A DNA stretch of 32,000 nucleotides from a bacterium (GTDB taxonomy: Bacteria > Auribacterota > Erginobacteria > Erginobacterales > DAOSXE01), in NCBI GenBank assembly GCA_035380285.1, contig DAOSXE010000001.1, forward strand, positions 150,659 to 182,658, given 5' to 3'. Position 1 is the first letter of the stretch. The number at the start of each line of letters is the position of its first letter. Under the pieces are notes generated by a model, which saw only the letters and a program-made list of their open reading frames with translations, had not been told where the DNA came from and ran no database searches. Shown in pieces: positions 3,537-19,197 of the stretch. Position numbers and translations under genes: made by a program.

Positions 3537-4154
3537 ATGAAAAACGGCTTTTTCGTCCACGAATCGAGTTACGTGGATCCCGGGGCTTCCGTCGGGGAGG
3601 GGACCAAGGTCTGGCATTTCTGCCATGTCCTTCCCGGCGCGGTCATCGGGAAGAACTGTTCGCTGGGGCAGAACGTCAACGTCGGGGGAGCGGCCGTCGT
3701 CGGGGATCGGGTCAAGATCCAGAACAACGTGTCCATCTACGACAGCGTGGTGATCGAAGACGACGTGTTCTGCGGGCCGTCCATGGTGTTCACCAACGTG
3801 TTCAATCCCCGCAGCGAAGTGGTGCGCAAGCACGAATACCGCGGCACTCTGGTGAAAAAGGGAGCCTCGATCGGCGCCAACGCCACCATCGTCTGCGGAA
3901 CCACGATCGGAGCCTACGCCTTTGTCGGAGCGGGCGCCGTGGTCACCCGCGACGTCCCCGATTTCGCCCTGGCCTACGGAAACCCGGCCCGGGTTCGCGG
4001 TTGGATCTGCCGCTGCGGGATCAACCTCGATTTCGAGGGGGAATCGGCGGGCTGCGGGAACTGCGGCCGCCGCTACCGGCTGGAAGCCGGCCGGGTCAAC
4101 GAAGTCGGGAACCCGGAGGAAGAGAGCGCGGGCACGTGCGAATCGCCTATGTGA
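3537..4154 (+). CDS. Left-handed beta-helix N-acetyltransferase (WlbB/WbpD-like)
   Basis: Hexapeptide-repeat protein '[44 protein letters not shown]...[16 protein letters not shown]', typical of UDP-2,3-diamino sugar N-acetyltransferases. Confidence 0.88.
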
Positions 4155-5221
4155 TCGACAAGATGGTCCGGGCCGGCGCCCAGCGCCACCTGGCGCAGGT
4201 GATCCGGGGGATCGGGGACCGTGGCCACCAACCGATCCTGTGCTGCCTCCTCTATGCCGGACCTCTGGGTGAAGAGTTGGAGAAAGCAGGTGTGCCGGTT
4301 TCGGTGCTGGGCCTGAAAGGAGTGGTGGGAAGAGATTTTTTCCGGGCGGTGTCCGCTCTCCGCCGGCTCTGCGTCAGCGAGGATATCGATATTATCCACG
4401 CCTATCTCTTCGCGGCCAACATCGTCGCTCCCTGGGCGGGGCTGTTTTCCGGGAGGAGGGTGATCACCAGCCGCCGGGACGACGGTTTCTGGAAACGCCC
4501 CCGGCATATCATCGCCCATCGGCTGGGAAACGTCTTCACCTCCCGGGTGACCGCCAACTCCCGGTCCGTGGTCGAATACCTGCGCCTCCGGGAACACCTT
4601 CCCGGGAAGCGGATCAGTCTGATCTACAACGGCATCGACCCCCGGCCCCCCTCCGCTCCGCGTCCGGCCCGAAAAACGGTTCGGATCGGATGCCTGGGCA
4701 ACATCCGGCCGGTCAAAGGCTACGAAGATATGGTGAAAGCCCTGGCTCGGCTCGATCCGGGGCTCTCCTGGGAAGCGCACATCGCCGGACGCGATTTGGA
4801 GCGCGACCACGCCCTGTTTCTGAAAAACCTGGTCCGGGAAACGGGCCTGGAGAAAAGAGTCGTCTGGACGGGCGAGATCGACGAACCGTACGCCTTTCTC
4901 GAAAGTCTGGATATTTTCGTTCTCCCCTCCCGCTCCGAGGGTTTCTCCAACTCCCTCCTGGAAGCGATGAGCTGTGCGTGCCCGGTGGTCGCGACCGCGG
5001 TGGGAGCGAATGACGAAGTGATCCGCGCCGGCCGCGACGGCATCGTCGTCCCTCCCGCGGATCCCGCCGCGCTCGCCCGGGAACTGGAGAAGCTGGTCGT
5101 CTCCGCAACCCGGCGGGAAAGCTGGGGGCGGTCGGCGCGGCTGCGCGCCCGGGAGTTCTCGACCCGGAAGATGCTCGGGCAAATGGACGCGCTCTACCGT
5201 GAGGTGGGGGGGGGAAGATGA
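4136..5221 (+). CDS. Glycosyltransferase family 4-like; GTG start at 4136 preferred to the long ORF start at 4001
   Basis: '[27 protein letters not shown]...[32 protein letters not shown]'. The ORF-track extension overlaps the upstream acetyltransferase and carries no family signal. Confidence 0.87.
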
Positions 5222-6045
5222 GCAGGCCGGCCCGTGCTATCCGTTCCGGGGCGTTTGCGGCCGGCGCGCTCCCCGCCGCCGCCGCCGCGATCTGGCGGGG
5301 ACGGGGGGTGCGGGTGCTTACCTATCACCGGATCGACGATCTCCCCGGAGACCGACTGGGGGTTAGTCCCGGTATTTTCAGAACCCATCTGAAGACGATT
5401 AGGGACCGGGGGTACCGGGTCGTTACCCTTGACGATCTTCTCGACGCTCCCGCCGCTGCTCGACCCCCCGATTCTCCCCGGCTGGTCATCACGTTCGACG
5501 ACGGCTACCGGGACTGGTATGATAACGCCTTCCCGATATTGCAGGAGTTTTCTTACCCGGGGGTATTTTTCCTGACCGTGGGGCTGGTGGACGGAAGCGC
5601 CGAAATTCCCCGTTATCGGACCTTGGCCGCCGAACGCCGCCGGGCGCTGACGCCGGGGCAGATCGCGGATATGGCCGGCGCGGGCATGCGCTTCGAGTCC
5701 CACGGCGTCACCCACCGGGAAATGCCTGCTTTGTCCCCCGGGGAGAGGAATGGCGAGTTGAAGGAAAGCGCGCGGAAGATCGCGGAATGGACGGGTCGAG
5801 CTCCCGGTTGGTTCGCTTTTCCCCGGGGCAAGTACGTCCCGGAGATGATCGGGGAACTGCGGGGCGCCGGTTATCGGGGTGCGGTGACGGTGGATCCCGG
5901 CAGCAACGTTCGGTTCCGCGGGTACCCGCTGGTGAGAAGAACCGAGATATCCGCCGACGACTCCCTTTGCGATTTCGGGTTCAAGCTCCGCGGAGGTGCC
6001 GATTTCATTCACCGGCTCCGGCGCGGCCGGGGAGAAGGAAGCTAG
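5218..6045 (+). CDS. Polysaccharide deacetylase (NodB-like, CE4)
   Basis: 'VLTYHRIDD', 'LVITFDDGYRDWYDNAFPIL', 'FESHGVTHREM' correspond to NodB-homology motifs. Confidence 0.88.
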   Translation: MSRPARAIRSGAFAAGALPAAAAAIWRGRGVRVLTYHRIDDLPGDRLGVSPGIFRTHLKTIRDRGYRVVTLDDLLDAPAAARPPDSPRLVITFDDGYRDWYDNAFPILQEFSYPGVFFLTVGLVDGSAEIPRYRTLAAERRRALTPGQIADMAGAGMRFESHGVTHREMPALSPGERNGELKESARKIAEWTGRAPGWFAFPRGKYVPEMIGELRGAGYRGAVTVDPGSNVRFRGYPLVRRTEISADDSLCDFGFKLRGGADFIHRLRRGRGEGS

Positions 6046-6046
6046 G

Positions 6047-7228
6047 ATGGACCCCGTGCGGCCGGTCAGGATTCTGCATCTCATCGACAGCCTTCCCCGC
6101 GAAGGGGCGGAGATGCTGCTCTTCGATCTGATTCAAAGAAGCGATCGGAGCCTGCTGGATTTTTCGGTGTGCTCGCTCACGGGCGGGGGAGGGGTGGAGA
6201 AGATGCTGGCGGAGCTGGGAGTCGCCGTTCATCTGCTGGGTCGCCGTTCGCCCGGGGACGTGTCGGCTTTCCGGCGTCTGTGCCGGATTATCCGCTCCGG
6301 CGGGGTCGAGATCGTGCATACGCATATTTTTTCCAGCCATCTGTGGGGGGCGGCGGCGGGCCGCCGATGCGGGGCGAAGGTGATGAGGACCGAGCATAAT
6401 ATGTCCGCCTGGAAGCGGGGTTGGCGGGCGCGGGCCGACCGGGTCTTGGCCCGGATGACCGACCGGGCGATCGCGGTCTCGGAACCGGTGCGGACGTCGC
6501 TGATCGAGGTCAGCGGTTTCGCCCCCGACCGGGTGGTCACGATCGCCAACGGTCTTAATCTGCGCCGGATCGGGGCCATGGCCGGGGAGACGAAGATACG
6601 CCAGGAATTGGGGCTGAGCCCGGCAAGTCTCGTGGCGGGGACTTCGGCCGCGCTTACGCCCAAAAAAGGGCATCGCTACCTGCTGGATGCGGCGGCCCTT
6701 TTACGAGCCGATTTCCCCGGCCTCCATTTCCTCCTGCTCGGGGAAGGGGAACTGCGGGAAGAGATCGCGGAGGGAATCCGCGCCCGGAATCTGCAGGGCA
6801 CCGTGCATCTTCTCGGTTCGCGCCCCGACGCTCTCGAGATCGTCGCCGGTCTCGACGTCTTTGTGATGAGTTCCGTGAGGGAAGGCCTTTCCATCGCCCT
6901 CCTGGAAGCGATGGCATTGGAAAGGCCGGTGGTGGTGACGGCCGTGGGGGGCGCGGTGGATGTCATCGAGGACGGGGTTTCGGGGGTGCTCGTTCCCGAA
7001 CGGGACGCGCGGGCCCTGGCCGCGGGGATAACCTCGGTCCTTTCCTCCCCGGCCCGGTCGGTTCGGATGGGGCGGCGCGCCCGGACCGCCGTCGAGGAAC
7101 GGTTCGACTTCGACCGGATGGTCCGCAGGTACGAAGAGGAATACCTGCGCCTGGTCCGCCCCCCCGGGAAGCGGTTGCCGGAAGAGGTCGGCTCGGGTAC
7201 CATGGCTTCGGGAAAAATCGAGCGATGA
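6047..7228 (+). CDS. Glycosyltransferase family 4-like; ATG at 6047 preferred
   Basis: 'ILHLIDSLPREGAEMLLFDLI...VLIVAGLDVFVMSSVREGLSIALLEAMALERPVVVTAVGG'-like GT4 architecture. Extension to 5996 overlaps the upstream gene. Confidence 0.87.
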   Translation: MDPVRPVRILHLIDSLPREGAEMLLFDLIQRSDRSLLDFSVCSLTGGGGVEKMLAELGVAVHLLGRRSPGDVSAFRRLCRIIRSGGVEIVHTHIFSSHLWGAAAGRRCGAKVMRTEHNMSAWKRGWRARADRVLARMTDRAIAVSEPVRTSLIEVSGFAPDRVVTIANGLNLRRIGAMAGETKIRQELGLSPASLVAGTSAALTPKKGHRYLLDAAALLRADFPGLHFLLLGEGELREEIAEGIRARNLQGTVHLLGSRPDALEIVAGLDVFVMSSVREGLSIALLEAMALERPVVVTAVGGAVDVIEDGVSGVLVPERDARALAAGITSVLSSPARSVRMGRRARTAVEERFDFDRMVRRYEEEYLRLVRPPGKRLPEEVGSGTMASGKIER

Positions 7229-8340
7229 GCGTCTGGAATTACTTCAAATACGGCCGGCGGCTTTTCTATAAACGCAACGCTTCGCCGCTGTACCTGGTTT
7301 TTTTCGTTACCGAGCGCTGCAACGCCCGTTGCCGCCACTGTCTTCTGGGGGGAATCCATCCCGGTCGCGACGAACTTACCCTGGAAGAGATCGAGCGGGT
7401 TTCCCGCTCGATGGACGATTTTCTTTTTCTGCTCCCCACCGGGGGGGAGCCGTTTCTTCGTTCCGACCTTCCCGAGATCGTGGAGGTGTTCTACCGCAAC
7501 AACCATATCCAGAACGTAGGCATTCCCACCAACGGCGGTCTGACGGAGAAAGTGGTGGGGGCGGTGGAAGAGATCCTGCGCCGCTGTCCGGGGCTGGATT
7601 TGATGGTGGATGTCTCCATCGACGGAATCGGCCCCGATCACGACGAGATCCGCCGGGTGCCCGGGCTCTTCGAAAAAGCCATGGAGACCTTCCGGCGCCT
7701 GAAGGAGATCGACGCCGCGCACCCCCGGTTCACGGCCAGCATAGAAACCACGGTTTCTTCCTTCAACGACGATAAACTGGAAGACATGTTCCGCTATTTC
7801 ACCGAGAAAGCCGGAGCGCAATCCATATTCACGCTCCTCTGCCGGGGCAAACCCATGGAGCCGGCCGCCAAATTTTTCGACATCGAACGCTACACCCGTT
7901 ACGCCGAAGCCCTGGAAGCGGGGATGATGCGGCGACGGCTCACCGGGTACGATAAGTTCCCCTTCGCCGACCTGATCAACGCCAAACGGATCGTGCGCCA
8001 CCGCCTCATCGGCAGAATCATCCGCGAGAACAGGATGGTCCTTCCCTGCTACGCGGGGATACTGGGCGCCGCGCTCTTCGCCAACGGCGACGTGCTCCCC
8101 TGCGAGCTGCATTCGGATCTGACCATGGGAAACGTCAGGGAAGCAGGATACGATTTCAAGCGGATCTGGTTCGGCGCCGCCGCCGTCCGCGCCCGGGAAA
8201 CCATCAGGAAACAGAAGTGTTTCTGCACCTATGAGTGTTTTCTCACCCTCAACATCCTCTTCAATCCCCGCATGTATCCGCAGCTCATCAAGGAATATCT
8301 GAAGGTGAAGTGGGCGAAGCTGTTCGGGAGGCGGCAGTGA
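7225..8340 (+). CDS. Radical SAM protein with SPASM-like C-terminal cysteines
   Basis: CxxxCxxC in 'VTERCNARCRHC', 'TGGEPFLR'. Later Cys set 'PCYAGILGAALFANGDVLPCE...KCFCTYECF'. Confidence 0.88.
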   Translation: MSVWNYFKYGRRLFYKRNASPLYLVFFVTERCNARCRHCLLGGIHPGRDELTLEEIERVSRSMDDFLFLLPTGGEPFLRSDLPEIVEVFYRNNHIQNVGIPTNGGLTEKVVGAVEEILRRCPGLDLMVDVSIDGIGPDHDEIRRVPGLFEKAMETFRRLKEIDAAHPRFTASIETTVSSFNDDKLEDMFRYFTEKAGAQSIFTLLCRGKPMEPAAKFFDIERYTRYAEALEAGMMRRRLTGYDKFPFADLINAKRIVRHRLIGRIIRENRMVLPCYAGILGAALFANGDVLPCELHSDLTMGNVREAGYDFKRIWFGAAAVRARETIRKQKCFCTYECFLTLNILFNPRMYPQLIKEYLKVKWAKLFGRRQ

Positions 8341-8672
8341 GCGGACGAGCCAAACCGCCGAAGCTTCATTATGTCCGCCCCCGGCGCTGGATCAGCGTTT
8401 CGTCGCCTCGGGCGGACGATATCGGCAAAAGGCCCCAACTGACCCGAAACTACATCTTTCTGGTGGTGGGGCTGGCGATCGTCGCCGGCGCCCTGATCGG
8501 ATGGGGTATCGGGATCGGGATCAACCGGGCCGTGCACATCAACACCCGCCTGGAGCCCGTCGGCGGTGATTCAGCGAAACCCGCGTCCGGCGCTTTCAGC
8601 GCTTATTCGGAGGCGCCCGAAATCGAACTGTCCGCCGGCGAACTCTCGCCTTCGCTGAAGGCGGTGCGCTGA
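8337..8672 (+). CDS. Small hypothetical single-TM protein
   Basis: GTG overlaps the radical SAM stop codon (GTGA). Clear TM segment 'NYIFLVVGLAIVAGALIGWGIGIGI'. The 3' end overlaps the convergent motB-like gene by 70 nt. Confidence 0.5.
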   Translation: MSGRAKPPKLHYVRPRRWISVSSPRADDIGKRPQLTRNYIFLVVGLAIVAGALIGWGIGIGINRAVHINTRLEPVGGDSAKPASGAFSAYSEAPEIELSAGELSPSLKAVR

Positions 8673-9430
8673 ACGATCTCGATCTCCACCCGCCGGTTCC
8701 GGGCGCGGCCTTCCGGGGTTTCGTTGGAGGCCACCGGTTTTTGGGAGCCGTAGCCGACGGCGCTGAACCGGGCCGGGTCGACCTGGTGGGAATCGATGAA
8801 ATAGCGCAGCACGGCCGCGGCCCGGGCGCTGGAAAGTTCCCAATTGGAAGGATACAGCGGCGTGTGAATGGGCGTGGAGTCGGTGTAGCCGCCGATCCGG
8901 ACCTGGTAGGGGTTGAGTTCGAAAAACGCCGCCAGCCGATCGAGCAGTTCCCGGGCCTGGGGCCGGAGAACGGCTTTGCCCGGAGAGAAGAGGAACGGGG
9001 CCAGGGGCACGATCGTCACCTTCCAGCGCGAAACCTCGACCCGAACGAACCGTTCCAGACCCTGGTCGACGACGTACTGCTTGATCTCCTCCCCGAGCTT
9101 CTGGAGTTCGTCCACCCGCTCCAGTTCCTTGAGCAGGGGCGACTCCAGTTTTTCCAGTTTGACGATCAGATCGGGGTCGGCTTCCCGGACCTCGACCAGA
9201 GGGACGTTGTCCGGGGCCTCGACATCGGCCTGGTCGGTCTGGATGAATTTCTTCCCCGCGATCCAGGCGGGGTTGATCTTGAGGGCGAGCATGGTGGCCA
9301 GGATGATGAAGAAGGTCATGAGCAGGGTGGCCATGTCCGAATAGGTGGTCATCCAATCCGGAGGCCAGGTCGCCTCCAGGTCCCCGGACCCGGTTTCCTG
9401 GGTTCCCCTGGTTCTTCGCCGCGCCGCCAT
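8603..9430 (-). CDS. MotB-like stator protein with OmpA-like peptidoglycan-binding domain (second paralogue)
   Basis: 'DWMTTYSDMATLLMTFFIILATM' (MotB TM with conserved Asp), then 'IGGYTDSTPIHTPLYPSNWELSSARAAAVLRYF...VGYGSQKPVASNETPEGRARNRRVEI'. Confidence 0.92.
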   Translation of the reverse strand: MAARRRTRGTQETGSGDLEATWPPDWMTTYSDMATLLMTFFIILATMLALKINPAWIAGKKFIQTDQADVEAPDNVPLVEVREADPDLIVKLEKLESPLLKELERVDELQKLGEEIKQYVVDQGLERFVRVEVSRWKVTIVPLAPFLFSPGKAVLRPQARELLDRLAAFFELNPYQVRIGGYTDSTPIHTPLYPSNWELSSARAAAVLRYFIDSHQVDPARFSAVGYGSQKPVASNETPEGRARNRRVEIEIVQRTAFSEGESSPADSSISGASE

Positions 9431-9432
9431 GG

Positions 9433-10272
9433 CTATCCCTTGTCCAGCATCTCCGAACTGATATACATGTGAAATTCGATCCGCCGGTTCCGGGCCCGGT
9501 GCTCGGGCGTGTCGTTGGGGAAACGGGGCAGGGAGTCGCCGTAGCCGCTGACCGAGATCAGGCTGGCGGGGATCCCGCCGTGCTCGATCAGATAGCGCCC
9601 GGCCGCCACCGCCCGGGCGCTGGAGAGCTCCCAGTTGCTGGGGAACCGGCGCCGGTGGCAGGGGTGGATGGGGACGGAGTCGGTGTGGCCCTCGATCCGG
9701 ATCGCGGCCCCGGTCCCCCGCAGCAGCGCGGCGATCTTATCGAGGATGGGGTAGAAAGCGGGCTGCAGCGTGTCCGATCCTTCTCGGAAAAGGATGTCGG
9801 TGGTGGTGGGGATGAGAACGACGTCCTCGGCGGTGACCTTGATTTCGATGTCCCGGGCGACGCCGGTTTGGGCCAGGGTCTCCTTGATCTCCTCGGCCTT
9901 CTCCTGGATGGGCCGGAGTTCGTCGACGGCCAACTCCTGTTGGGGGGAAATATTGCGGGCCAGATCGGCCACGCGTTTTTTGACCATCACCTGGCGGGGT
10001 TGATCTCCCTTTTTAATATCGGTCTGTTCTTCGGCGATTCCCCGGACGATCTTGCTCGATGATTCCTTGGCGATCTCGATCCATTCCTGGGGCAGCCCCA
10101 TCATGGTGTTGGCGTACCAGAGCACGAAGAAAGTGAGCAGGATCGTGGTCATATCCGAATAAGTGGTCATCCACTTCGGCGGCCACTCCCCCTCCAGCCC
10201 TCCTTCCTGAACGTCGGGCTCGATGCGGGTCCGCTCGACCAGGGGATCGCCGGCTTTCTTCTTTCTCGGCAA
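9433..10272 (-). CDS. motB: MotB-like stator protein with OmpA-like domain (first paralogue)
   Basis: 'KWMTTYSDMTTILLTFFVLWYANT' with conserved Asp. OmpA-like 'IEGHTDSVPIHPCHRRRFPSNWELSSARAVAAGRYL...RARNRRIEFHM'. Directly downstream of motA. Confidence 0.93.
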   Translation of the reverse strand: MPRKKKAGDPLVERTRIEPDVQEGGLEGEWPPKWMTTYSDMTTILLTFFVLWYANTMMGLPQEWIEIAKESSSKIVRGIAEEQTDIKKGDQPRQVMVKKRVADLARNISPQQELAVDELRPIQEKAEEIKETLAQTGVARDIEIKVTAEDVVLIPTTTDILFREGSDTLQPAFYPILDKIAALLRGTGAAIRIEGHTDSVPIHPCHRRRFPSNWELSSARAVAAGRYLIEHGGIPASLISVSGYGDSLPRFPNDTPEHRARNRRIEFHMYISSEMLDKG

Positions 10273-11028
10273 TCACTGCCTCCCGGCCAGGTAGGCCTTG
10301 AGTTTCTCCCGGACGATCTGGGAATTGTCCCCCGCCTGGATGGATGCGATGCCTTCGATGATGATCTCGCGGGTGAGGGCCATGTTGGTGTTGTAGACCC
10401 GGATTTTGCCGGCGATGGGCATACAGAAAAGCCCGGCCAAAACGATTCCGTAGAAGGTGGTCATCAGGGCCACGGACATGTTGGGGGCGATGGTCTCCAC
10501 GTCGGAGAGGGTTCTCAGCAGCAGGATCAGCCCGACCAGGGTCCCGACCATCCCGAAGAGGGGGGCGTAGACCGAGATGTCGCGCCAGAGCCGTTCGTCG
10601 GTGGAGATCTTCATGTGCAGGTAGTCGGAGACGGTCTCGAGGATCCCCCGGGTGACTTCGGGGTCGGTTCCGTCCGCCACCAGGTCGACGCCGATGTCGA
10701 GCAGGGGGTAGCGGCCGTTGGTGGAGAGCTCCCGGATGGCCATGAACCCTTCCCGGCGGGCCTTGACCGCCATGTCGACGATGATCTCGATCACGGACTC
10801 CGGGCTGAGCACCCGGGTGACCAGAGTGAAACGGAAAGCCTTGAGGCCGTCCACGATCTGGCGGATGCTGAAGTTGATAAGGATGGCGGCCGAGGTACCC
10901 CCGAAGACGATCAGGACCGACGGCCAGTTGACGAAGTACCCCACCATCTCCATGCCCCCCCTGAGGAAGATGGAGAAGAAGATAACGCAGAACCCGATGA
11001 TGAAGCCGATAATGGTCGTCAGTCGCAT
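10273..11028 (-). CDS. motA: Flagellar-type motor stator protein MotA
   Basis: 'FGGTSAAILINF', 'ARREGFMAI', 'YAPLFGMVGTLVGLILLLRTL', 'MTTFYGIVLAGLFCMPIAGKI' are canonical MotA features, including the conserved prolines. Confidence 0.95.
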   Translation of the reverse strand: MRLTTIIGFIIGFCVIFFSIFLRGGMEMVGYFVNWPSVLIVFGGTSAAILINFSIRQIVDGLKAFRFTLVTRVLSPESVIEIIVDMAVKARREGFMAIRELSTNGRYPLLDIGVDLVADGTDPEVTRGILETVSDYLHMKISTDERLWRDISVYAPLFGMVGTLVGLILLLRTLSDVETIAPNMSVALMTTFYGIVLAGLFCMPIAGKIRVYNTNMALTREIIIEGIASIQAGDNSQIVREKLKAYLAGRQ

Positions 11029-11037: not shown

Positions 11038-11238
11038 CTATTCCTTGGGTTGCAGCGGTGCCGCGATCGAACGCTTGTAATCCTTCACTTTCCCGACGAT
11101 TTCGTCCACGCTTTCACGGGCGATGAACTGCTCGCCGGTGGTCAGGGTGATGATCGTATCCGGCCGGCCTTCCACCCGTTCGATGAAATCGGCGTTGAGA
11201 ACCATCTCCTGCCCGTTGAGCCTGGTCACCTTTATCAT
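11038..11238 (-). CDS. flbD: FlbD family protein
   Basis: 66 aa 'MIKVTRLNGQEMVLNADFIERVEGRPDTIITLTTGEQFIARESVDEIVGKVKDYKR' matches the FlbD pattern; position immediately 5' of motA is the classic flbD-motA-motB order. Confidence 0.92.
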   Translation of the reverse strand: MIKVTRLNGQEMVLNADFIERVEGRPDTIITLTTGEQFIARESVDEIVGKVKDYKRSIAAPLQPKE

Positions 11239-11253: not shown

Positions 11254-13338
11254 CTAAACCATCTCCTCCTGGAACCTGTGCACCGAAACCTGTCCCTCGC
11301 GTTCGAGCTTGCGGATGGTGGCGATGATCTCGTGCTGGGCCTCCATGGTCTTGCTGCTGAGCTGGCGGAGGATGTTCATGATCTCCTCCTGGGCTTCGTC
11401 GGCCCGCTTGCGGCTGATCGAACCCATCACTTCCAGATCCTCCTTGAGCATGGCCACCGCCCGCTCCGTCAGGCCGGCGAAAAACTTCTCCCGCACCTGC
11501 TCGGACGCCCCCCGCAGCGCCATCTTCAGGACGGTCCGGTCCACGGTCCGGAAGATATCCTCGATCACGTTCTGATCGACTTCCAGCATGGCTTCGTTGA
11601 ACGGCAGTTCCTTTCCTTCGCGCTCGATCTCGACCCGGCGCACGGTTTGGGTGTCTTCTTCGAACATTTCCCGGGCCCGGTCGGTCATGTTGCGCAGGAA
11701 CTTGGCTTTAACTTCGTCGGACGCATCGGAGAGCGAGTTGGCGATCATCTCCCGGGAGATGTTGTGGATAAGGGTTTCGATATCCTTGTCGTCCAGGGAT
11801 GAGATGTCCTCGAAGAGGAACATGCGTTTGCGGACCTCCTCGGCCAGGGTGGTATTCCGTTTCTGCATGTTCTCCAGAATGATCTTGGCCACCGCGTACC
11901 GGCTGGAACTGAGGATGTCGGCCAGAACCCGGTAGCCCATGACCGGGATATAATCTTTCAGCATCTTGATCTGTTTGAGCTTGCGTTCCAGGAAAGCCTT
12001 GATCTCCCCGGCCATGTCCTCCCCCTCGGTCAGAGAACTCATGGCCTGGGCCACCTCCAGCTGTTTTTCCTCCTCCAGCTTGCTCAGGGCATCGGCGGCG
12101 TCCTTGGGATCGACTTGGGAGAGAACCGCGGCGGCCAGTTTCGGTTCCTCGTCCATGATCAGGAGGTGGACTTCGTCGGGCGGCAGGGAGCGCAGGTACT
12201 TGAAGGGCTCGTCGAGGAGCGAGGCGTCGGGGAGCTTCTCCAGTTGCTGGGACATCAGATCTTCGATGTTGCCCAGGACCTCGACCACCTCGGCGCCGAA
12301 GCCGACTCCGGCGGCTCCCGGCGCCGCCGGTCCGGCCGCCTGCGCCGCCGGGGCCGCGGCCGCCGGTGCTCCCGTTCCGGGAGTCCCGGTGCCGGTGCCG
12401 CCGCCGGCGACCAGCTTGCGCTGTTCGTCGAGCATGTCGGAGAGAGTGTCCCGGATTTCGGAGAGCAGGGCGTCCGCTTCCTGGGGCCCGCGGGTGAGGG
12501 CGTCGCGGATCTCCCCCAGCAGCTCGTCGAAATTGGTCCCCTGGCCGCTCCGGTCGAGGGCGTCTCGGATCTCTTCCAGTATTTCTCCGTAATCCCCGCC
12601 GCCGGCGGCAGCCACCACCTGGCGGATTTCCTCCAGTTCCTGGCGCCGCCGTTTCTTCTTGTCTTCCGGGCTTTCCTCGTGCCCGCTCCCCCCCGCTTCG
12701 CCGCCCGCCCCCTGGGCCCCGCCGATGATCGCCGTTTCCGCGCGTTTCTGTTTCCGCAGGGGCAGGAATATGGCGGCGATCAGGATGAGCAGGCCCGCGA
12801 GGGCGATGAGGGCGTAGAGGACGTAGTTCTGTTGGGCCGCCGAGGGAGGAAGCGCCACTTCGGGCCACGGTTCGGGGACGACGGCGACGGTGTCGCCGCG
12901 GGCTTCGTTGATCCCGGCCCAGCGCCGGACGGCCGGTTCGATGGCTTCGATCTGTTCCTGGGGCAGGTTTTCGTCGACCTCGACGGTGATGTGGAGGCTG
13001 GAGATGGTGGGGGAGAAGTTATTGGCCGCCTGAACCAGTTTCTTTTCCTGGGCGGCGTCGACCGTCTTTACCCCGGATATCCGGGAAAGCCCCTGTATCC
13101 TCTGCAGGTTGCCGTTACCGGTGGGATCGCTGAGGGTGACGTCGATGGATACGATCGTTCTTCCCGGCCCCACCAGGGTGTCGAGTTTGGGCTGTAGGTT
13201 GGCTTGGATGGCCGCTTCGGTCTGGGCTTCGGCGCTGCTCTGGGCCACTTGGGCCGCACCGGTCCCGGCCAGGAGGAGGAAGACGGTGGCCAGGACGGCG
13301 CTCGCTCTAACCGGTCCGCGGGAGAGGCTGCCGGGCAT
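11254..13338 (-). CDS. Composite FliF(RBM3/C-terminal TM)-FliG-like protein with signal peptide and duplicated FliG_C-like module
   Basis: FliF-like 'LDTLVGPGRTIVSIDVTLS...LHITVEVDENLPQEQIEAIEPAVRRWAGINEARGDTVAVV' then TM 'YVLYALIALAGLLILIAAIFL'. FliG_M-like 'FKYLRSLPPDEVHLLIMDEEPKLAAAVLSQVDPKDAADALSKLEEEKQLEVAQAM'. FliG_C-like 'TTLAEEVRKRMFLFEDISSLDDKDIETLI...EVKAKFLRNMTDRAREMFEED' and second 'VIEDIFRTVDRTVLKMALRGASEQVREKFFAGLTERAVAMLKEDLEVMG'. Confidence 0.85.
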   Translation of the reverse strand: MPGSLSRGPVRASAVLATVFLLLAGTGAAQVAQSSAEAQTEAAIQANLQPKLDTLVGPGRTIVSIDVTLSDPTGNGNLQRIQGLSRISGVKTVDAAQEKKLVQAANNFSPTISSLHITVEVDENLPQEQIEAIEPAVRRWAGINEARGDTVAVVPEPWPEVALPPSAAQQNYVLYALIALAGLLILIAAIFLPLRKQKRAETAIIGGAQGAGGEAGGSGHEESPEDKKKRRRQELEEIRQVVAAAGGGDYGEILEEIRDALDRSGQGTNFDELLGEIRDALTRGPQEADALLSEIRDTLSDMLDEQRKLVAGGGTGTGTPGTGAPAAAAPAAQAAGPAAPGAAGVGFGAEVVEVLGNIEDLMSQQLEKLPDASLLDEPFKYLRSLPPDEVHLLIMDEEPKLAAAVLSQVDPKDAADALSKLEEEKQLEVAQAMSSLTEGEDMAGEIKAFLERKLKQIKMLKDYIPVMGYRVLADILSSSRYAVAKIILENMQKRNTTLAEEVRKRMFLFEDISSLDDKDIETLIHNISREMIANSLSDASDEVKAKFLRNMTDRAREMFEEDTQTVRRVEIEREGKELPFNEAMLEVDQNVIEDIFRTVDRTVLKMALRGASEQVREKFFAGLTERAVAMLKEDLEVMGSISRKRADEAQEEIMNILRQLSSKTMEAQHEIIATIRKLEREGQVSVHRFQEEMV

Positions 13339-13342: not shown

Positions 13343-14119
13343 TTAATCCTCCGTAGGTTCGGTTCCGGCCGATCCGGCCGGTTCCGGGACCGCGGCGGGC
13401 CCCCCCACCGTCTCCAGCCCGGCGTAGCGGGGGACGATCAGCACCATTCCCGGGTAGATCAGGTCCGGTTCGAAGATCTGGTCGCGATTGGCGTGGTAGA
13501 GAAGGAGCCAACGGTAGGGGTTGCCGTAAACTTCCGGCTTGCCCGCGATGGTCCAGAGGCACTCGCCCTCGCCGACCAGGTAGGTGTCCATGCCCAGAAG
13601 CTGCGCGGAAACCGGTTCGCCCGCGGCGGTTACCGTGATCCGCGGACCGGTCTCGGAACCGCTCGCCTCGGCCTCGCTGAGCTGCAGCTCCGCCTGGCGG
13701 CGCTTGATTTCTTCGTCTTCGGCCTTGATCGTCAATTCCTCGACCTGGTTTCTCAAGGCCTCGACTTCTTTTTTCAGGGCGTCGGCGGCGGCTTGTTCGT
13801 CCCGCAGGGCCTGGAGAAGCTCTTCCTCGCTGGGGGCGGGAGACTCCGCGGTTCTTCGAGACCCGGCTTCGGGGTAGTAGCGTTCGAGGTCGCGCATCCG
13901 GGGGTTGCGGAAGATGAACCCCTCGTTGCCCCAGAGGACGTCGTCGGGTCCCCCGATGGTCAGCGGCCGGGGGCTGAACGGGTAGTCCATGGGGCGGAAG
14001 GTGCGGCCGCCCGGTTTCCAGACGCTCTCCAGGTCGTAACGGTCCGCGATTTCGGCCGTGTCCGCAAGGAGGTTTCCCGCCGCCCCCGCGGCCAGAATGA
14101 AGATGAACAGTCGCTTCAT
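13343..14119 (-). CDS. Exported coiled-coil protein with C-terminal LysM domain
   Basis: Signal peptide 'MKRLFIFILAAGAAGNLLA', coiled-coil Glu/Lys-rich middle, LysM 'YLVGEGECLWTIAGKPEVYGNPYRWLLLYHANRDQIFEPDLIYPGMVLIVP'. AAGGAG Shine-Dalgarno 6 nt upstream of ATG. Confidence 0.88.
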   Translation of the reverse strand: MKRLFIFILAAGAAGNLLADTAEIADRYDLESVWKPGGRTFRPMDYPFSPRPLTIGGPDDVLWGNEGFIFRNPRMRDLERYYPEAGSRRTAESPAPSEEELLQALRDEQAAADALKKEVEALRNQVEELTIKAEDEEIKRRQAELQLSEAEASGSETGPRITVTAAGEPVSAQLLGMDTYLVGEGECLWTIAGKPEVYGNPYRWLLLYHANRDQIFEPDLIYPGMVLIVPRYAGLETVGGPAAVPEPAGSAGTEPTED

Positions 14120-14156
14120 CAAGGGCTCCTTAGATTGAAGTAATTGCTGAAATCAA

Positions 14157-14283: not shown

Positions 14284-15315
14284 ATGGAAAGAAAAAGGCT
14301 GGCAAATCGCCTGCTCACCGGGATTTGGATTTTCCTGTTCCTCCTGGTGGTGGGACTTTTTTTGGGGAGCCGGTTGACGGAGGTGAAGGGGTGGCTGCGG
14401 GGTTTGGTCCGCGAGCCGCAAGCCGTCATGAACTCCTTCCAGCCCCGTTCGATGGCGGGTTTCCGATGTTCCTTCGAGCAGCCCGGGGATACCGGGATCT
14501 GGGTCACCCACCAGACGGCGCTGGCGGTGACCGACCTGGATCTGCCCGGCGCCCGGCACTGGGCCCGGGTCACGTATTACCCCGGCACCGCTCCGGGGCT
14601 TCTCTGGACCGACGAATCCATGGGCGTGATGGATTGGCGGGGGGTGAAGGCGTTGGAATTCGACGCTTATAACCCCAACGGGTGGCCCGTGGATTTGAAG
14701 ATTAAAATCAAGGACCAGTCCGGGAACTCCTTCCAAAGAGCCCAGAAACTGGCGCCGGGCCGAACTACTTCGATATCAGTACCGCTGTCGGCTGCATCCG
14801 GCCAACTCAACCTGGGGCGAGTCAGCTATCTGAATCTTTTCTTGTGGGGCCCGGGAAGCGAAACGGTTCTCTTCTTTTCCAATTTCAGCCTCCCCGGGGT
14901 CGGCGAGACCCCACCGGCTTCGAACCGGCAGCCGGGGCTTAAATTTCTTGGGTTGGAATTTCCCCGGATTCTCCGCCGGGGGGAGATAGTTGAGGCTTCT
15001 TTCTTCTTCATGCCGGAGGCGGCGTTGCCGGAGGGCTGCCTGCTCTTGGTCCGTCTCAAGAATCGAGCCGGCATCACTCCCTTGGGCGAGGTTTCCCCGC
15101 CGCTGCCCACCTCGGCCTGGGCGCCGGGGCGGATGGCCCGGGTCGGTCCGTTCCCCCTGGAAATCCCGATGACCGCCTCCCCCGGCTTGTACGAACTGGA
15201 AGCGGTCATGGCCCGTCCCTTGGGGGAGAGCGGGGAAGGGGGGGTTGTTTTTCTGCCCTACGCCAACGCCGACCTGCCCGGGCATTCGGTGGCCGAGGTG
15301 GAAGTGATCGAGTGA
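14284..15315 (+). CDS. Membrane-anchored surface/periplasmic protein with CBM-like and Ig-like beta-sandwich regions
   Basis: N-terminal TM 'LLTGIWIFLFLLVVGLFLG'. 'MDWRGVKALEFDAYNPNGWPVDLKIKIKDQSGNSFQRAQKLAPGRTTSISVPL' resembles CBM-type beta-sandwich. C-terminal 'LPEGCLLLVRLKNRAG...TASPGLYELEAVM' resembles the neighbouring protein. Confidence 0.65.
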   Translation: MERKRLANRLLTGIWIFLFLLVVGLFLGSRLTEVKGWLRGLVREPQAVMNSFQPRSMAGFRCSFEQPGDTGIWVTHQTALAVTDLDLPGARHWARVTYYPGTAPGLLWTDESMGVMDWRGVKALEFDAYNPNGWPVDLKIKIKDQSGNSFQRAQKLAPGRTTSISVPLSAASGQLNLGRVSYLNLFLWGPGSETVLFFSNFSLPGVGETPPASNRQPGLKFLGLEFPRILRRGEIVEASFFFMPEAALPEGCLLLVRLKNRAGITPLGEVSPPLPTSAWAPGRMARVGPFPLEIPMTASPGLYELEAVMARPLGESGEGGVVFLPYANADLPGHSVAEVEVIE

Positions 15316-15359
15316 GATTTCGAAACGACAAGCAGCGACTGTAACCGGAGAAAGTGGAG

Positions 15360-16823
15360 ATGCATAAAAAATTGATGGGTTTAGCGATCTTCCTGGTATT
15401 GACTGGGATGGGTAGGAGCGAAACCGTGCTCAGGGAAGGCCCCGCCCGGCTGAAATTCATCAGTTTTTCCCTGCAGACCGAGATTCCCCAGGGGACGTTC
15501 GTCAAGGCCAGCGCTTTTTTCCAGCTTACGGCTCCGGTCGACGGCGACGAGAAGGTGTTTTTCCATCTGGCTCCGGCCGGCCAGAAAAACCCGGTTCTCA
15601 ACGCCGATTTCTATCCCAAATATCCCACTTCGCTTTGGGCGGTGGGCCAGACGGTGGAAGCCGGCCCGATCGGCCTGACCGTTCCCGGCACGATCGCCCC
15701 CGGAGAGTACGATCTCAGGACCGGGTTGATGGAGATCGACCGCACCGGGCAGGAAACCCGGTATATCCGGGAAAAGTTCACCAATCCCGAGATCAAGGAT
15801 TTCACGGTGGGTCGGGTGCGGGTGGTTCCTCCGGCCGACGGAGCCGGGGGAGGGCCGGGGGAAGGGGAGCAGGCTCCCGTCGCCGACCTGGACATAGTCA
15901 GTTTCGAGAAAGACAACGACGTCCTCCTCTGGCAACCGGTGGGGGCGCGGGTCGAGCGCTACGACCTCGACGAGCTCCCGGTGGCCGCGGTCGCCATCGT
16001 CCCCGATCCGTCGGTCCCTTATCCGGGGGTGGAGTTGAACAATTTTTTCCAGATATTCCCCCAATATGCCGACTGGTCGCTGTACGACGCTCTCCAGGTA
16101 GGTTTGTCGGTCCCCGGCCAATCTCCCCTGCGCAGGTTGTTCATACAGATCAGCGACGCTCAAGGACGGATGTATAAAAAGGAAGTCCGGTTGAAACCGG
16201 GGGAGTCGGCTCAGGAACTGCTGGATATGGTGACGCTGGGGGGGGTAATCAATATCTCCCGGATAGCGCGGGTGAAAATCTTTTCGGTCGCCCTCGACCG
16301 GGAAGCCACCTTTTACGTCACCGGGTTGCGGCTGCTGGCGCGGGGGATGCCGACCAGCGAGCCCACGGTCGAGTTCGTGCGCCTGGAATGCCCGGCCAGC
16401 GTCAAGCGGGGGGAAGTCTTCTTCGTCAAGGTGTTCTTTTCCCTGAAGGCTCCGGTCTTCGCCCCCTGCAAGCTGTTCGTCCATATCTACCGGGAAAACG
16501 ACCTCCAGGGAGCGGTGAACGGGGACAACAATCTGGTGGTCCCGGTACGGCAGTGGCCGCTGAAGCAGGAAGTGGGCGCGTTGTCGTCGCCGGTGATGAT
16601 CCGCCCCGACGCCCCTCCCGGGCGATATCTGGTCCGGGCCGGTCTCTATACCCCCATCCAAAGCGACGGGGTCGGGTATATCAAGACCGCGACCTGGGAC
16701 GACGGCCGGGGGCAGGAGGTCGTCAACATCGAGCAGCCGGTGGTCGGGGAAGATTATATCAAGCAGCCCTATACCGATCCCAAGATCGAGGATTGGGTGG
16801 TGGGCTCGATCCAGGTCGAATAA
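15360..16823 (+). CDS. Exported multi-domain beta-sandwich protein with two copies of an Ig-like module
   Basis: Signal peptide 'KKLMGLAIFLVLTGMGRSE'. Modules ending 'EKFTNPEIKDFTVGRVRV' and 'KQPYTDPKIEDWVVGSIQV', each preceded by 'GEYDLRTGLM' or 'GRYLVRAGLY'. ATG at 15360 with GGAG 9 nt upstream preferred to GTG 15354. Confidence 0.7.
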   Translation: MHKKLMGLAIFLVLTGMGRSETVLREGPARLKFISFSLQTEIPQGTFVKASAFFQLTAPVDGDEKVFFHLAPAGQKNPVLNADFYPKYPTSLWAVGQTVEAGPIGLTVPGTIAPGEYDLRTGLMEIDRTGQETRYIREKFTNPEIKDFTVGRVRVVPPADGAGGGPGEGEQAPVADLDIVSFEKDNDVLLWQPVGARVERYDLDELPVAAVAIVPDPSVPYPGVELNNFFQIFPQYADWSLYDALQVGLSVPGQSPLRRLFIQISDAQGRMYKKEVRLKPGESAQELLDMVTLGGVINISRIARVKIFSVALDREATFYVTGLRLLARGMPTSEPTVEFVRLECPASVKRGEVFFVKVFFSLKAPVFAPCKLFVHIYRENDLQGAVNGDNNLVVPVRQWPLKQEVGALSSPVMIRPDAPPGRYLVRAGLYTPIQSDGVGYIKTATWDDGRGQEVVNIEQPVVGEDYIKQPYTDPKIEDWVVGSIQVE

Positions 16824-16850: not shown

Positions 16851-17702
16851 ATGAGCAGAGTCCGCAGCAGGTTGGCCGTCCTGGGCGTGGTCGGTCTGGC
16901 CGGCCTATGCGCCGTGGCCGGTTTTCTTTTGTTCGACGCCCTGGTCGTCGAACCCAACTGGATCACCGTGCGGCGCGTGCGCATCGAAAACCCGGACCTG
17001 GCCGCCGCCCTGGAGGGGGTCCGGGTCGCCCAGATCTCCGACCTCCACCTGCGGGGGAGCTTGGGGTTCCGGGAACGGTCCCTGATCGCCCGCTTGAACC
17101 GGTTGCGCCCCGATCTGATCCTCATTACCGGAGATCTGGTCGAAGGACCGGGGCAGGGCCGCTTGGCCGTGGAATTCATCCGCCAACTCAAGCCCGGGCT
17201 CTGGTCCTACGGAGTTCTGGGTAACGCCGACCGCAACGCCTTTTCCGTATCCCAGCGGAATGCCCTGCGCCGGGCCGGCCTGGAGATGATCGGGGAAAGG
17301 GCGTTGCGGATGCAGCCGGGAGCGGCTCCGGCCGAATTTTATCTGGCCGGGATCGATTTCCCCGGCTACGGGCAACCGGTGCCCGCCGACCGGATCCGGG
17401 AAATCGTCTCCGGGGTGCCTCCGGGAAAACCCATAATTTTTCTGGCTTATTCCCCCGACGCGGCGGAAGCGCTGGCGGATGAAGGCGTGGACCTGGTGCT
17501 TTCCGGGGATTCCCACGGCGGGCAGGTCGGCCTTCCCGGTTGGGGGAGTCTGTTCGAGGAGTTCGGGAGGTCGCGGTTCGTCCGGGGTCTCTACCGGTTG
17601 AAAAACACCGTTCTCTACGTCAATCGGGGGATCGCCACCAAGACGGTGCCGATCCGCTTTCTCTGCCCCCCCGAAATCACCCTCTTCGAGTTTACCCGAT
17701 GA
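16851..17702 (+). CDS. Calcineurin-like metallophosphoesterase (YkuE/YaeI-like), N-terminal TM
   Basis: 'VRVAQISDLHLRG', 'DLILITGDLVEG', 'YGVLGNADR', 'LVLSGDSHGGQVGLP'. Confidence 0.88.
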   Translation: MSRVRSRLAVLGVVGLAGLCAVAGFLLFDALVVEPNWITVRRVRIENPDLAAALEGVRVAQISDLHLRGSLGFRERSLIARLNRLRPDLILITGDLVEGPGQGRLAVEFIRQLKPGLWSYGVLGNADRNAFSVSQRNALRRAGLEMIGERALRMQPGAAPAEFYLAGIDFPGYGQPVPADRIREIVSGVPPGKPIIFLAYSPDAAEALADEGVDLVLSGDSHGGQVGLPGWGSLFEEFGRSRFVRGLYRLKNTVLYVNRGIATKTVPIRFLCPPEITLFEFTR

Positions 17703-18553
17703 AAGCCGTTCTTGTCGGGCCGCGGAAATTGCTGGGATGGATCGCCCCTTTCCTGCCCCTGCTGGTACTGGCGTGGCCGGCCTGGCGGGCGCTGACCTGG
17801 ATGAACCGCCGGTTCTTCGAACAGGAATCCTACTACTCTCACGGCTGGCTGATTCCGGCCGCCATCGCCTGGCTCATCTATCTGCGCCGCTCCCGGATCG
17901 CCGCCGTGGGCCGGCAGGCCTCTTTTTTCGGGGCCTTCGCGTATGGGTTGGGGGTGTCGATCGCGGCCTCGGGCATCGTCATCGATATCCGATTTCTCGT
18001 CGCCTGGGGGCTGGTTCTGGCCGGGATCGGGTGGTACTGGTCGTGGGCAGGTGCCGCCCGGGCCCGGATCGCCCTTCCTCCTCTCCTCCTGCTCCTGGGC
18101 ATGATCCCCCTCCCCGGAGTCTGGCTGTTGGCGTTGACCGCTCACCTCAAATCCTTAGCCGCCGCCGGGGGGGTTGTCGTCGCCGGATTGTTGGGGGTGC
18201 AAGCGGTGTTGGATGGTTCCACCGTGATCGTCGCCGGTGCCCCTCCCGGGCCGAGCCTGGTGATCGGCGACCCCTGCAGCGGGCTGCGCTCGCTCTTGGT
18301 TTTTGCCTCCCTGGGCTTGTTTTTCGCTCTTCAGGAAGAATCCGGACCGCTGCGCAAGGTTCTCCTGGCGGGGCTGGCGTTGTCGATGGCGCCGCTCAGC
18401 AATCTTCTGCGGGTGGTGTTTCTGATAGTGGTCCGCCGGGTGATCGGGCCGGTGGCTCTCGAAGGTCCGATCCATCTCCTGGCCGGCGCCGGGGCTTTCG
18501 GGTTCTGCTTTTTTCTCTATCTGCTTGCGGTCGGGAGATGGTTCCGCCGATGA
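17699..18553 (+). CDS. Exosortase family protein
   Basis: Multi-TM with catalytic triad motifs 'GDPCSGLRSLLVFASLGLFFAL', 'PLSNLLRVVFLIVV', 'GPIHLLAGAGAFGF'. 'SYYSHGWLIP' near the N-terminus. ATGA overlap with the phosphoesterase. Confidence 0.92.
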   Translation: MKAVLVGPRKLLGWIAPFLPLLVLAWPAWRALTWMNRRFFEQESYYSHGWLIPAAIAWLIYLRRSRIAAVGRQASFFGAFAYGLGVSIAASGIVIDIRFLVAWGLVLAGIGWYWSWAGAARARIALPPLLLLLGMIPLPGVWLLALTAHLKSLAAAGGVVVAGLLGVQAVLDGSTVIVAGAPPGPSLVIGDPCSGLRSLLVFASLGLFFALQEESGPLRKVLLAGLALSMAPLSNLLRVVFLIVVRRVIGPVALEGPIHLLAGAGAFGFCFFLYLLAVGRWFRR

Positions 18554-19197
18554 AAAAACGGGGTGTGATCGTCGTCGTCGAAACCGTTGCGGCCGTTTTG
18601 ATCCTGGGGTTGGCGGCGACGATTTCGAACCGGCGTCACGAGCCGGGCTCGTATCCGGTCATCGATCTCGAGAAGATTCCGCTGGAAATCTCCGGCTGGA
18701 AGGGAAAGCGCGTTTCCCTGGGGCCCGACCATCCCGCCCGGGTCGGAGGAGTCGCCGCGGTGTATATCAGCTATCTCAAGGGGGACAGACATCTCGATCT
18801 CTACGTGGTGGAGGGCGCCCCCGGGACGTTTTCGCTCCACCCTCCCGAATATTGCCTGATCGGCGGGGCCAGCGACGAGACCGCGCGGTCGCGGATCGGC
18901 GTTCCTTACGGGGAGGGGAAGGAGATCGAGGTCAACCGCTTCGAGGCCGAAAGGATGCGGCGCCGGAGCCTGGTGTATTACTGGTACGCGGACGGTAACG
19001 GTTTTACTCCGGATTATCTTCTTCCCCAGGTGGCCAACCTGGCGAAGCGCCTGGCGGGGCGAGAGCGAGCCTTCTGCCTGGTCCGGCTTTCCTGGGACGG
19101 CGACGACGGGCTCGACTACGCGGAAGAATCCTTCCGGCTCTTTATCCGGGAAGCGCTGCCCGCGATCGCTCCGATCTTCTCCGGCGGCGGGAAATGA
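18550..19197 (+). CDS. EpsI-family protein (exosortase-associated)
   Basis: 'IPLEISGWKGKRVSL', 'FSLHPPEYCLIGGA', 'LVYYWYADG...'; directly coupled to the exosortase. Confidence 0.85.
   Translation: MKKRGVIVVVETVAAVLILGLAATISNRRHEPGSYPVIDLEKIPLEISGWKGKRVSLGPDHPARVGGVAAVYISYLKGDRHLDLYVVEGAPGTFSLHPPEYCLIGGASDETARSRIGVPYGEGKEIEVNRFEAERMRRRSLVYYWYADGNGFTPDYLLPQVANLAKRLAGRERAFCLVRLSWDGDDGLDYAEESFRLFIREALPAIAPIFSGGGK

Follow-up and report, generated by a model that had tools for sequence, protein, structure and literature searches.

What is the product of a gene that joins two flagellar rotor proteins, and that lies in a locus for polysaccharide synthesis, used for? This question is raised by a 32,000-nucleotide stretch, hereafter the window, from a member of the Auribacterota (GenBank assembly GCA_035380285.1, contig DAOSXE010000001.1, positions 150,659 to 182,658). 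One of its genes encodes a protein of 694 amino acids (aa) in which a reduced FliF, the flagellar membrane-ring protein, continues into FliG. An earlier note on this DNA had recognised the third ring-building motif (RBM3) of FliF and a FliG part in this protein, and had interpreted it as a stripped-down flagellar MS/C-ring. The homology claims hold in the analyses described here, but the flagellar interpretation fits the context of the gene poorly. The fusion belongs to an operon with its own stator genes, in an exopolysaccharide (EPS) and exosortase locus; apart from the fusion, FlbD, MotA and the MotBs, no flagellar gene is found in the 32-kb window, and the lineage is reported to be without flagella. 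Thus, the protein does not appear to form a flagellar MS/C-ring, and most likely is the rotor of a non-flagellar machine.

On balance, we favour the view that the fusion is the rotor of a flagellum-independent, ion-driven rotor-stator module, which is made from derived flagellar parts and tied to the handling of surface polymers. The parts with which a flagellum is built are missing. These are RBM1 and RBM2 (the site of the export gate), the greater part of the beta-collar, the N-terminal domain of FliG (FliG_N), and the FliM-binding motif EHPQ.

Layout and conservation of the fusion gene

The segments of the protein follow each other in the order signal-peptide-like segment, RBM3, transmembrane (TM) helix, linker, FliG_M and FliG_C. 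Their positions in the window are as follows.

11254..13338, minus strand: mini-FliF/FliG fusion gene, 694 aa, ATG start (Pfam, AlphaFold2, Foldseek and alignments)
13252..13338, minus strand: aa 1-29, signal-peptide-like or TM1 hydrophobic segment of n-h-c shape, ending before the invariant Q30
12859..13251, minus strand: aa 30-160, periplasmic ring-building motif of FliF RBM3 type (AlphaFold2, Foldseek, PF08345 and profile matches)
12751..12840, minus strand: aa 167-196, TM helix (AlphaFold2 pLDDT 83-97), equivalent to FliF TM2 and aligned to Salmonella FliF up to residue 475
12208..12750, minus strand: aa 197-377, cytoplasmic linker in place of the FliF C-tail and FliG_N
11959..12207, minus strand: aa 378-460, FliG middle domain (ARM_M; Pfam FliG_M, E 7.6e-11, aa 389-457)
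11269..11874, minus strand: aa 489-690, FliG C-terminal domain (Pfam FliG_C, E 4e-40, in three stretches)

The open reading frame (ORF) has a GC content of 0.83 at third and 0.41 at second codon positions, which equals that of genuine neighbour genes and is unlike that of shadow ORFs. All three peptide strings quoted in the earlier note were located in its translation. That note had given no strand; the 694-aa ORF that it described is on the minus strand, and its architecture, which recurs in homologues, goes well beyond a chance likeness. Conservation in relatives, which had been proposed there as a check, is extensive: 27 close homologues of 686-710 aa share 49-70% identity and come from independent NCBI, JGI, ENA and Logan assemblies. 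The source names of these homologues include Candidatus (Ca.) Auribacterota, Ca. Erginobacter occultus and “PVC group bacterium”, and the one that NCBI names as Ca. Erginobacter occultus (P0024) has the same locus. In addition, there are dozens of distant fusions of 453-836 aa with the order RBM3-TM-FliG_M-FliG_C, some of them from Omnitrophota. Identity figures for individual protein segments, as given below, refer to the fusion family.

No NCBIfam model names the fusion, and source annotations call it “FliG C-terminal domain-containing protein” or “FliG”. Because it has neither RBM1 nor RBM2 and only a reduced collar on the FliF side, and no FliG_N, no EHPQR motif and a score below the equivalog cut-off on the FliG side, it should best be filed as a derived paralogue of both FliF and FliG and a member of neither family.

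The N-terminal part is derived from FliF

Pfam, fold comparison and an exhaustive profile search together identify the N-terminal domain as the RBM3 of FliF, as the earlier note had recognised. Its collar is shortened, and the helix behind it corresponds to TM2. The Pfam family YscJ_FliF_C (PF08345) matches aa 110-154 with 27.2 bits against a gathering cut-off of 23.8, and the score rises to 29.9 bits when aa 1-197 are scanned alone. Among 17 family members, 8 match PF08345 at E <= 1, the best being the window protein (9.2e-7). RBM1 and RBM2 had been noted as absent, and indeed YscJ_FliF (PF01514), which represents them, gave no match at E <= 1 in the Pfam scan; the periplasmic part has about 135 residues only.

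The AlphaFold2 model of aa 1-197 (pLDDT 71) contains a helix (27-56), a strand (61-69), a low-confidence insert (70-110), a second strand (112-122), a helix (127-141), a third strand (150-156) and the TM helix (167-196). The predicted fold is that of an alpha-beta-beta-alpha-beta ring-building motif and one TM helix after it. When the model was compared with the PDB by Foldseek, the first 17 ranks were taken without exception by RBM3/S-ring structures of FliF from Salmonella and Vibrio (E 1.7e-5 to 2.2e-4, probability 1.00), and the next match had an E-value of 0.06. PrgK and EscJ were found at E 0.13-0.16, and SpoIIIAG was not among the best 50 matches. Because of this gap between FliF (E <= 2e-4) and everything else (E >= 0.06), a generic ring-building motif of EscJ/PrgK/SpoIIIAG type was dropped as an identity for the domain.

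A profile made from the N-terminal 197 aa of the family alignment was run against 1.84 billion representative proteins. It gave 73 matches, including canonical FliFs that bear both PF01514 and PF08345. These align in two stretches, RBM3a and RBM3b (profile 26-100 to FliF residues of about 215-305, and profile 104-200 to about 330-440), between which canonical FliFs hold 40-50 extra residues compared with the fusion family. Against PDB sequences, a single-sequence phmmer search matched Salmonella FliF (6scn) only. It aligned aa 125-192 with FliF residues 404-475, where RBM3 ends with a helix and a strand and TM2 follows, at an E-value of no better than 0.25. The family profile, run against the same PDB sequences, found no FliF and only chance TM matches.

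The insert at aa 70-110 (about 40 aa) occupies the position of the FliF beta-collar and is 23% identical across the family, compared with 51-53% for the RBM3 core. The long insertion that canonical FliF has within RBM3 is absent, and a short, low-confidence insert is found instead. Of the two TM segments of FliF, TM2 is clearly represented by the helix at aa 167-196 (67% identity), which had been placed at about aa 172-194 in the earlier note. The hydrophobic segment at the N-terminus may represent a signal peptide that is cleaved off. The n-h-c shape of its 29 residues agrees with the signal peptide previously suggested at aa ~1-30, and it is the least conserved segment of the fusion (20% identity).

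The linker and the FliG domains

The linker, of about 180 aa, comprises a basic/acidic stretch, three helices, a disordered stretch rich in Gly, Ala and Pro (aa 313-349) and a single conserved helix. The three helices bear the motif [IL]L.EIRD.L at aa 253, 273 and 291. Each of the 27 close relatives has between one and three copies of this motif, as have six distant ones, including all those in the loci that we class as type A; it was not found in the type B and type C relatives examined.

FliG_N is not recognisable, since its sole Pfam match (E 0.054) falls on the ARM of FliG_M. Similarly, the alignment with the NCBIfam FliG model TIGR00207 begins at profile position 97 and scores 172.6 bits against a cut-off of 226.7. 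It had been proposed that a tether here replaces the contact between the FliF tail and FliG_N. The tether is present, but FliG_N is missing as well, so that both partners of the FliF_C/FliG_N interface are replaced.

The remainder of the protein had been described as FliG-like from aa ~379 to 690, and the Pfam matches to FliG_M and FliG_C bear this out. Thermotoga maritima FliG_MC (1lkv) aligns to residues 377-527 and 594-661 (E 1.6e-31), with an insertion of 66 aa between the two blocks. In FliG_M, the FliM-binding motif EHPQ(R) is replaced by EEPK (“sEHPQtia” in T. maritima, “dEEPKlaa” in the fusion), of which E397 and K400 are invariant in the family. In this insertion of 66 aa the beginning of FliG_C is partly repeated in tandem: aa 509-566 align with aa 581-638 with a score of 86, compared with 30.8 +/- 5.6 for shuffled sequences. 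The second copy carries the strings ALRGA, TERA and KEDL, aligned with ALKGA, SKRA and KDEL of T. maritima, and these are the counterparts of the torque-helix residues K264, R281 and D288/D289 of E. coli. This copy with its torque helix is the most conserved stretch of the whole fusion (77% identity), and the equivalents of R281 and D288/D289 are retained in distant type-A relatives.

An operon with its own stator

The fusion is the second of six tightly coupled minus-strand genes, in the order LysM protein, fusion, FlbD, MotA, MotB, MotB. The other five are as follows.

13343..14122, minus strand: secreted coiled-coil protein with C-terminal LysM (peptidoglycan-binding) domain, 259 aa, first gene of the operon
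11038..11238, minus strand: small protein of the FlbD/SwrD family, 66 aa (Pfam FlbD, E 4.7e-27)
10273..11028, minus strand: stator A subunit of MotA/PomA type, 251 aa, full length including the cytoplasmic torque-generating region
9433..10272, minus strand: MotB paralogue 1, 279 aa, with MotB_plug and OmpA domains; its TTG start overlaps the motA stop
8603..9430, minus strand: MotB paralogue 2, 275 aa, with MotB_plug and OmpA domains; 36% identical to paralogue 1

The stop of the LysM gene lies 4 nucleotides ahead of the fusion start, which has the ribosome-binding site GGAGGA. The LysM domain itself is recognised by NCBIfam (PRK11198 LysM, E 1.9e-10; LipL71, E 5.6e-10) and weakly by Pfam LysM (E 0.068). 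MotA aligns end to end with MotA and PomA structures in the PDB (E 1e-41 to 1e-40). Both MotBs have a plug, a TM segment with the channel aspartate of the YSD motif (WMTTYSDM) and an OmpA-like peptidoglycan-binding domain. For the stator genes as well as for FliG, every score against an NCBIfam flagellar equivalog is below the cut-off; for example, MotA reaches 188 bits with PomA.

One MotA gene followed by two MotB genes is found in every type-A locus, and this constant pairing suggests a heterodimer of MotB1 and MotB2 in the stator. The same arrangement, one motA and then two motB paralogues, occurs in Aquifex aeolicus, where the stator drives a normal flagellum.

Genomic context in relatives

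The operon is shared by the 27 close relatives (49-70% identity), and at 50-70% identity it is kept inside EPS loci of Wzx/Wzy type. With identical neighbours it is present in L001, L003 and L004, which are only 50% identical. Moreover, the six genes stay together in Omnitrophota and other lineages, where the fusions are only 30-34% identical. A homologue of the LysM protein precedes the fusion in L001, L003, L004, L011, L012, L014 and L015, and FlbD is downstream of it in all type-A loci and in L018. Within the Auribacterota loci MotA is 77-87% identical where the fusion is 50-70% identical, which indicates strong selection.

Two kinds of surroundings can be distinguished, one with EPS genes and one with adhesin-like genes. 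In the Omnitrophota and other-lineage loci of the first kind, the neighbours include Wzy, Wzx, Wza, Wzc, a deacetylase, a metallophosphoesterase and proteins of about 340 and 490 aa; a priming transferase is likewise among the EPS genes that flank the operons of relatives. Among the second kind, L010 has the fusion, MotA and MotB after a giant gene of 16,931 residues (1-8090, no Pfam match) and an outer-membrane barrel with tetratricopeptide repeats (TPR; UPF0164/FadL-like). L013 has a 2,773-aa protein in the place of the giant, also with an outer-membrane barrel/TPR gene, and again followed by fusion, MotA and MotB. In L017 (13078-19196) and L018 (13169-18699) the three genes are followed by an FG-GAP protein of 1,300-1,556 aa with a C-terminal domain of CHU_C type (type-B, type IX secretion system), and both loci also encode a PorP/SprF-like protein with TPR repeats after fusion-MotA-MotB. 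This arrangement recalls that of SprB and SprF in gliding Bacteroidota. In L018 the fusion unit is also downstream of Wza and Wzc.

Signalling genes are found near several of the relatives. A histidine kinase and a response regulator with a GGDEF domain are directly upstream of the operon in L011 from Omnitrophota, a GAF-HD protein is encoded in L015 and a PilZ protein in L010. In one case (P0055, L013 10001-12511) a complete HisKA-HATPase histidine kinase is fused N-terminally to RBM3-TM-FliG_M-FliG_C.

In all 18 loci examined, the operon is in a polysaccharide or adhesin locus and never beside flagellar genes. No Auribacterota metagenome-assembled genome (MAG) from Ace Lake, that of Ca. Erginobacter occultus included, is reported to encode flagella, in contrast to Ca. 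Auribacter fodinae (Williams et al. 2022, PMC9324843).

The polysaccharide locus of the window

Divergently from the operon, and further along the window, the following genes are found.

14284..15315, plus strand: conserved protein, 343 aa, with an N-terminal TM/signal segment, divergent from the operon; no Pfam or NCBIfam match
15354..16823, plus strand: conserved protein, 489 aa, with an N-terminal TM/signal segment, divergent from the operon; no Pfam or NCBIfam match
16851-17702, plus strand: metallophosphoesterase (Pfam)
17540-18553, plus strand: exosortase EpsH (Pfam, E 1.4e-34)
about 18590-19197, plus strand: EpsI/DUF3485 (Pfam, E 2.6e-22)
19207-20619, minus strand: priming sugar transferase Bac_transf (Pfam)

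Homologues of the 343-aa protein adjoin the operon in L001, L003, L004, L006, L008, L009 and L014, and those of the 489-aa protein are present in L001, L003, L004, L006, L009, L012 and L014. Either protein might be a partner of the rotor in the periplasm or at the surface. Glycosyltransferases, a deacetylase, RmlABD and other genes occupy 1288-8340 and 21540-26467, and the window also holds a hexapeptide acyltransferase and housekeeping genes. The exosortase is tied to the operon in the Auribacterota loci only. Despite the presence of EpsH and EpsI, a regular-expression scan of the 32-kb window found no ORF with a PEP-CTERM tail.

Comparison with known motors and fusions

A natural fusion of FliF and FliG has already been described in Chlamydiaceae (CT719-type; Bergeron 2016, PMC4768692). 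It is the closest precedent, and the fusion as such is not unprecedented. The chlamydial protein is likewise a single polypeptide with a signal/TM1 segment, shortened periplasmic ring-building motifs, TM2 and a cytoplasmic FliG-derived domain, and its hosts are also non-flagellated members of the PVC group. It differs in having about 330 aa, RBM2 plus a second ring-building motif and a FliG_M-like region only, and as we read its description it has no torque-helix domain; it has been discussed together with the type III secretion system (PMC4768692). By contrast, the window protein has 694 aa, RBM3 as its only ring-building motif, both FliG_M and FliG_C, a stator operon and a polysaccharide context, so that the likeness is one of architecture and the two are set apart by description. 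We know of no MotAB in Chlamydia.

With the canonical flagellar rotor, the fusion shares the RBM3 fold with TM2, FliG_M and FliG_C, and torque-helix charges that face a stator of MotA/PomA type. It differs in the absence of RBM1, RBM2 and FliG_N, in a collar of about 40 aa, in EEPK instead of EHPQ and in the partial duplication of FliG_C. The locus differs from a canonical flagellar one in that it is a polysaccharide locus, with no genes nearby for FliM/FliN, the export apparatus, rod, hook or filament. The covalent 1:1 ratio of FliF to FliG is also that of fusions engineered from the Salmonella and Vibrio proteins. When full-length, such engineered fusions form rings, and PDB 8z4d is among the structure matches of the FliG part.

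Two gliding machineries offer functional parallels. In Myxococcus, the ion-driven Agl motor of the MotAB/TolQR family serves either Glt in gliding or Nfs, which handles the spore-coat polysaccharide (Wartel 2013, PMC3858216); together with Nfs it moves this polysaccharide (PMC3858216). The Glt/Nfs dichotomy mirrors the adhesin-type and EPS-type contexts of the fusion family, as a functional analogy only, and the window has a flagellar-type stator plus a FliG rotor. Agl is a TolQR-like motor from a non-flagellar clade and works without a rotor ring of FliG type. GldL and GldM of Bacteroidota are not homologues of MotA, MotB or FliG in the narrow sense, and GldLM has no FliG ring either. Nevertheless, the gliding system of these bacteria, with type IX secretion and with GldLM moving SprB on anchors of PorP/SprF type, resembles L017 and L018: an ion-driven motor of 5:2 type is combined with giant surface proteins whose C-terminal domains are of the CHU_C/type-B kind, and with PorP/SprF-like partners in the outer membrane. 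This context is confined to distant relatives and is not that of the window. Proteins with type-B C-terminal domains are known to pair with PorP-like proteins (PMC9143113). A literature search found no description of this fusion family, or of a FliG rotor that is encoded together with a stator outside a flagellar locus, which is not proof of novelty.

A possible mechanism and its alternatives

If the fusion is the rotor of a flagellum-independent module, its RBM3 domains would assemble a ring in the membrane as that of FliF does, whose rings have about 33-34 subunits, and each subunit would bring one FliG to the cytoplasmic side of the ring. Stators of MotA5B2 type would be held to the peptidoglycan by their MotB subunits, perhaps one B1 paired with one B2, and might be assisted by FlbD/SwrD and the LysM protein. 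A flow of protons or sodium ions through the stators would push on the FliG torque helix and thereby turn the ring, probably one way only, since a switch complex is missing. The resulting motion might then pass through the periplasm to EPS export or assembly in the window, and to surface adhesins in other lineages. A more far-reaching claim is that fusion and MotAB represent a class of rotary machines that is non-flagellar, widespread and so far unrecognised. In Auribacterota, Omnitrophota and other uncultured lineages, a FliG ring driven by stators of flagellar type would then move or spin surface cargo (EPS here, giant adhesins on PorP/SprF-like anchors elsewhere). This we regard as possible but somewhat doubtful.

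A number of observations weigh against the module. That RBM3 domains with a short collar would form a closed ring, we infer from their likeness to FliF, and the full-length AlphaFold2 model is poor (pLDDT 61, pTM 0.25) and unusable for the linker or the packing of domains. In MotA, the position equivalent to E98 of E. coli is an arginine, with a glutamate one residue later, so that the charges do not pair exactly as in the canonical motor. The candidate partners, namely the LysM, 343-aa and 489-aa proteins, are without recognisable function. Furthermore, the statement that the carriers have no flagella comes from one paper on related MAGs, in which at least one Auribacterota MAG, that of Ca. 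Auribacter fodinae, is reported as flagellated (PMC9324843). Finally, the cyclic di-GMP (c-di-GMP) and histidine-kinase genes that are near, or fused to, relatives of the fusion fit signalling at least as well as mechanics.

This last point leads to the alternative that FliG ring and stators are a sensor rather than an engine, which would respond to load, ion-motive force or a surface. On this view, engagement of the stators would alter the shape of the rotor protein and so control EPS through c-di-GMP or two-component signalling, while no mechanical work would be done on a cargo. In Caulobacter and Bacillus, flagellar stators are used to sense surfaces and in this role act upstream of the synthesis of polysaccharide. 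The kinase that is part of P0055, the kinase and GGDEF genes upstream of the operon in L011, and the GAF-HD and PilZ proteins of L015 and L010 could all be explained in this manner. However, there is no signalling gene beside the operon in the window, a sensor does not obviously need two MotBs, FlbD, a LysM scaffold and strictly kept torque-helix charges, and the recurrent giant adhesins and outer-membrane barrels next to it resemble cargo; we therefore think a sensor unlikely. Lower still is the probability that the fusion is an accessory or alternative rotor of a true flagellum encoded elsewhere in the genome, a paralogue beside canonical FliF and FliG. The view of this genome is limited to 32 kb, motAB and flbD are genuinely of flagellar type, and flagella are reported for at least one MAG of the phylum. 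Nevertheless, related MAGs that have the locus are reported to be without flagella, the 18 loci are polysaccharide or adhesin loci throughout, and a protein with neither RBM1/2 nor FliG_N nor a FliM-binding motif could not hold an export gate or become part of a switch complex.

Decay after the loss of a flagellum would leave a remnant with no present function. Non-functional flagellar remnants are known from other non-motile bacteria, and a rotor protein is kept by 11% of non-motile species, the role of such proteins there having been explicitly left open in a 2025 survey (PMC12199754). It is hard to reconcile with decay that the ORFs are intact and translationally coupled, that the six-gene operon is kept where fusions have only 30-34% identity, that MotA is 77-87% identical in Auribacterota with functional residues the most conserved, or that features have been gained (the FliG_C duplication, the linker motif and the second MotB), and a remnant is thus very improbable. 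An assembly or frameshift artefact that joins two genes can be ruled out for practical purposes, since 27 independent assemblies (49-70% identity) and dozens of more distant proteins have the fusion as a single ORF. Two loci do show it divided. In L015 (8001-9988), an ORF of 181 aa for the RBM3/TM part and another of 459 aa for the FliG part are in different frames, and in L016 the FliG part is fragmented; we regard both cases as errors or as breaks that arose secondarily. The first ORF of L015 stops, following a change of frame, within the TM helix, which points to an error or mutation there and not in the fused forms.

To our knowledge, no case of rotation by FliG and MotAB has been described outside flagella, and all other described motors of the MotA/ExbB/TolQ family act on another kind of partner. 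Here, a conserved operon pairs a self-anchored FliG rotor with a complete stator of flagellar type, in bacteria reported to be without flagella. This suggests that rotor and stator of the flagellum were recruited for a different task at the surface of the cell. If a new class of machines is indeed represented, it would be a new kind of motor for surface transport or gliding. It would also mean that the rotor-stator core of the flagellum can work on its own without the type III export apparatus, which bears on the origin of the flagellar motor and makes the operon a test case for the independence of the two. The fusion might also serve as a natural minimal rotor for structural and single-molecule work (one protein, FliF and FliG at 1:1, no switch complex), and the module is a candidate energy source for EPS handling or gliding in uncultured PVC-related phyla.

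Other genes of the window

Two further genes are located at the downstream end of the operon.

7225-8340, plus strand: radical-SAM/SPASM enzyme, between glycosyltransferases and motB2
8235-8672, plus strand: small protein with a basic N-terminus, one TM segment and an acidic/Ser-rich tail, convergent to motB2

The radical-SAM/SPASM enzyme is 72% identical in L005 and is not at that position in other relatives. Counterparts of the small protein, of 94-117 aa, are in the same place in L001, L003, L004 and L012. At the other end of the window there are two phosphofructokinase paralogues (27847-29166 and 30241-31551, both on the plus strand). They support the placement of the window in the Auribacterota, as they agree with the pair of ATP- and PPi-dependent phosphofructokinases that has been reported for Auribacterota MAGs (PMC9324843).

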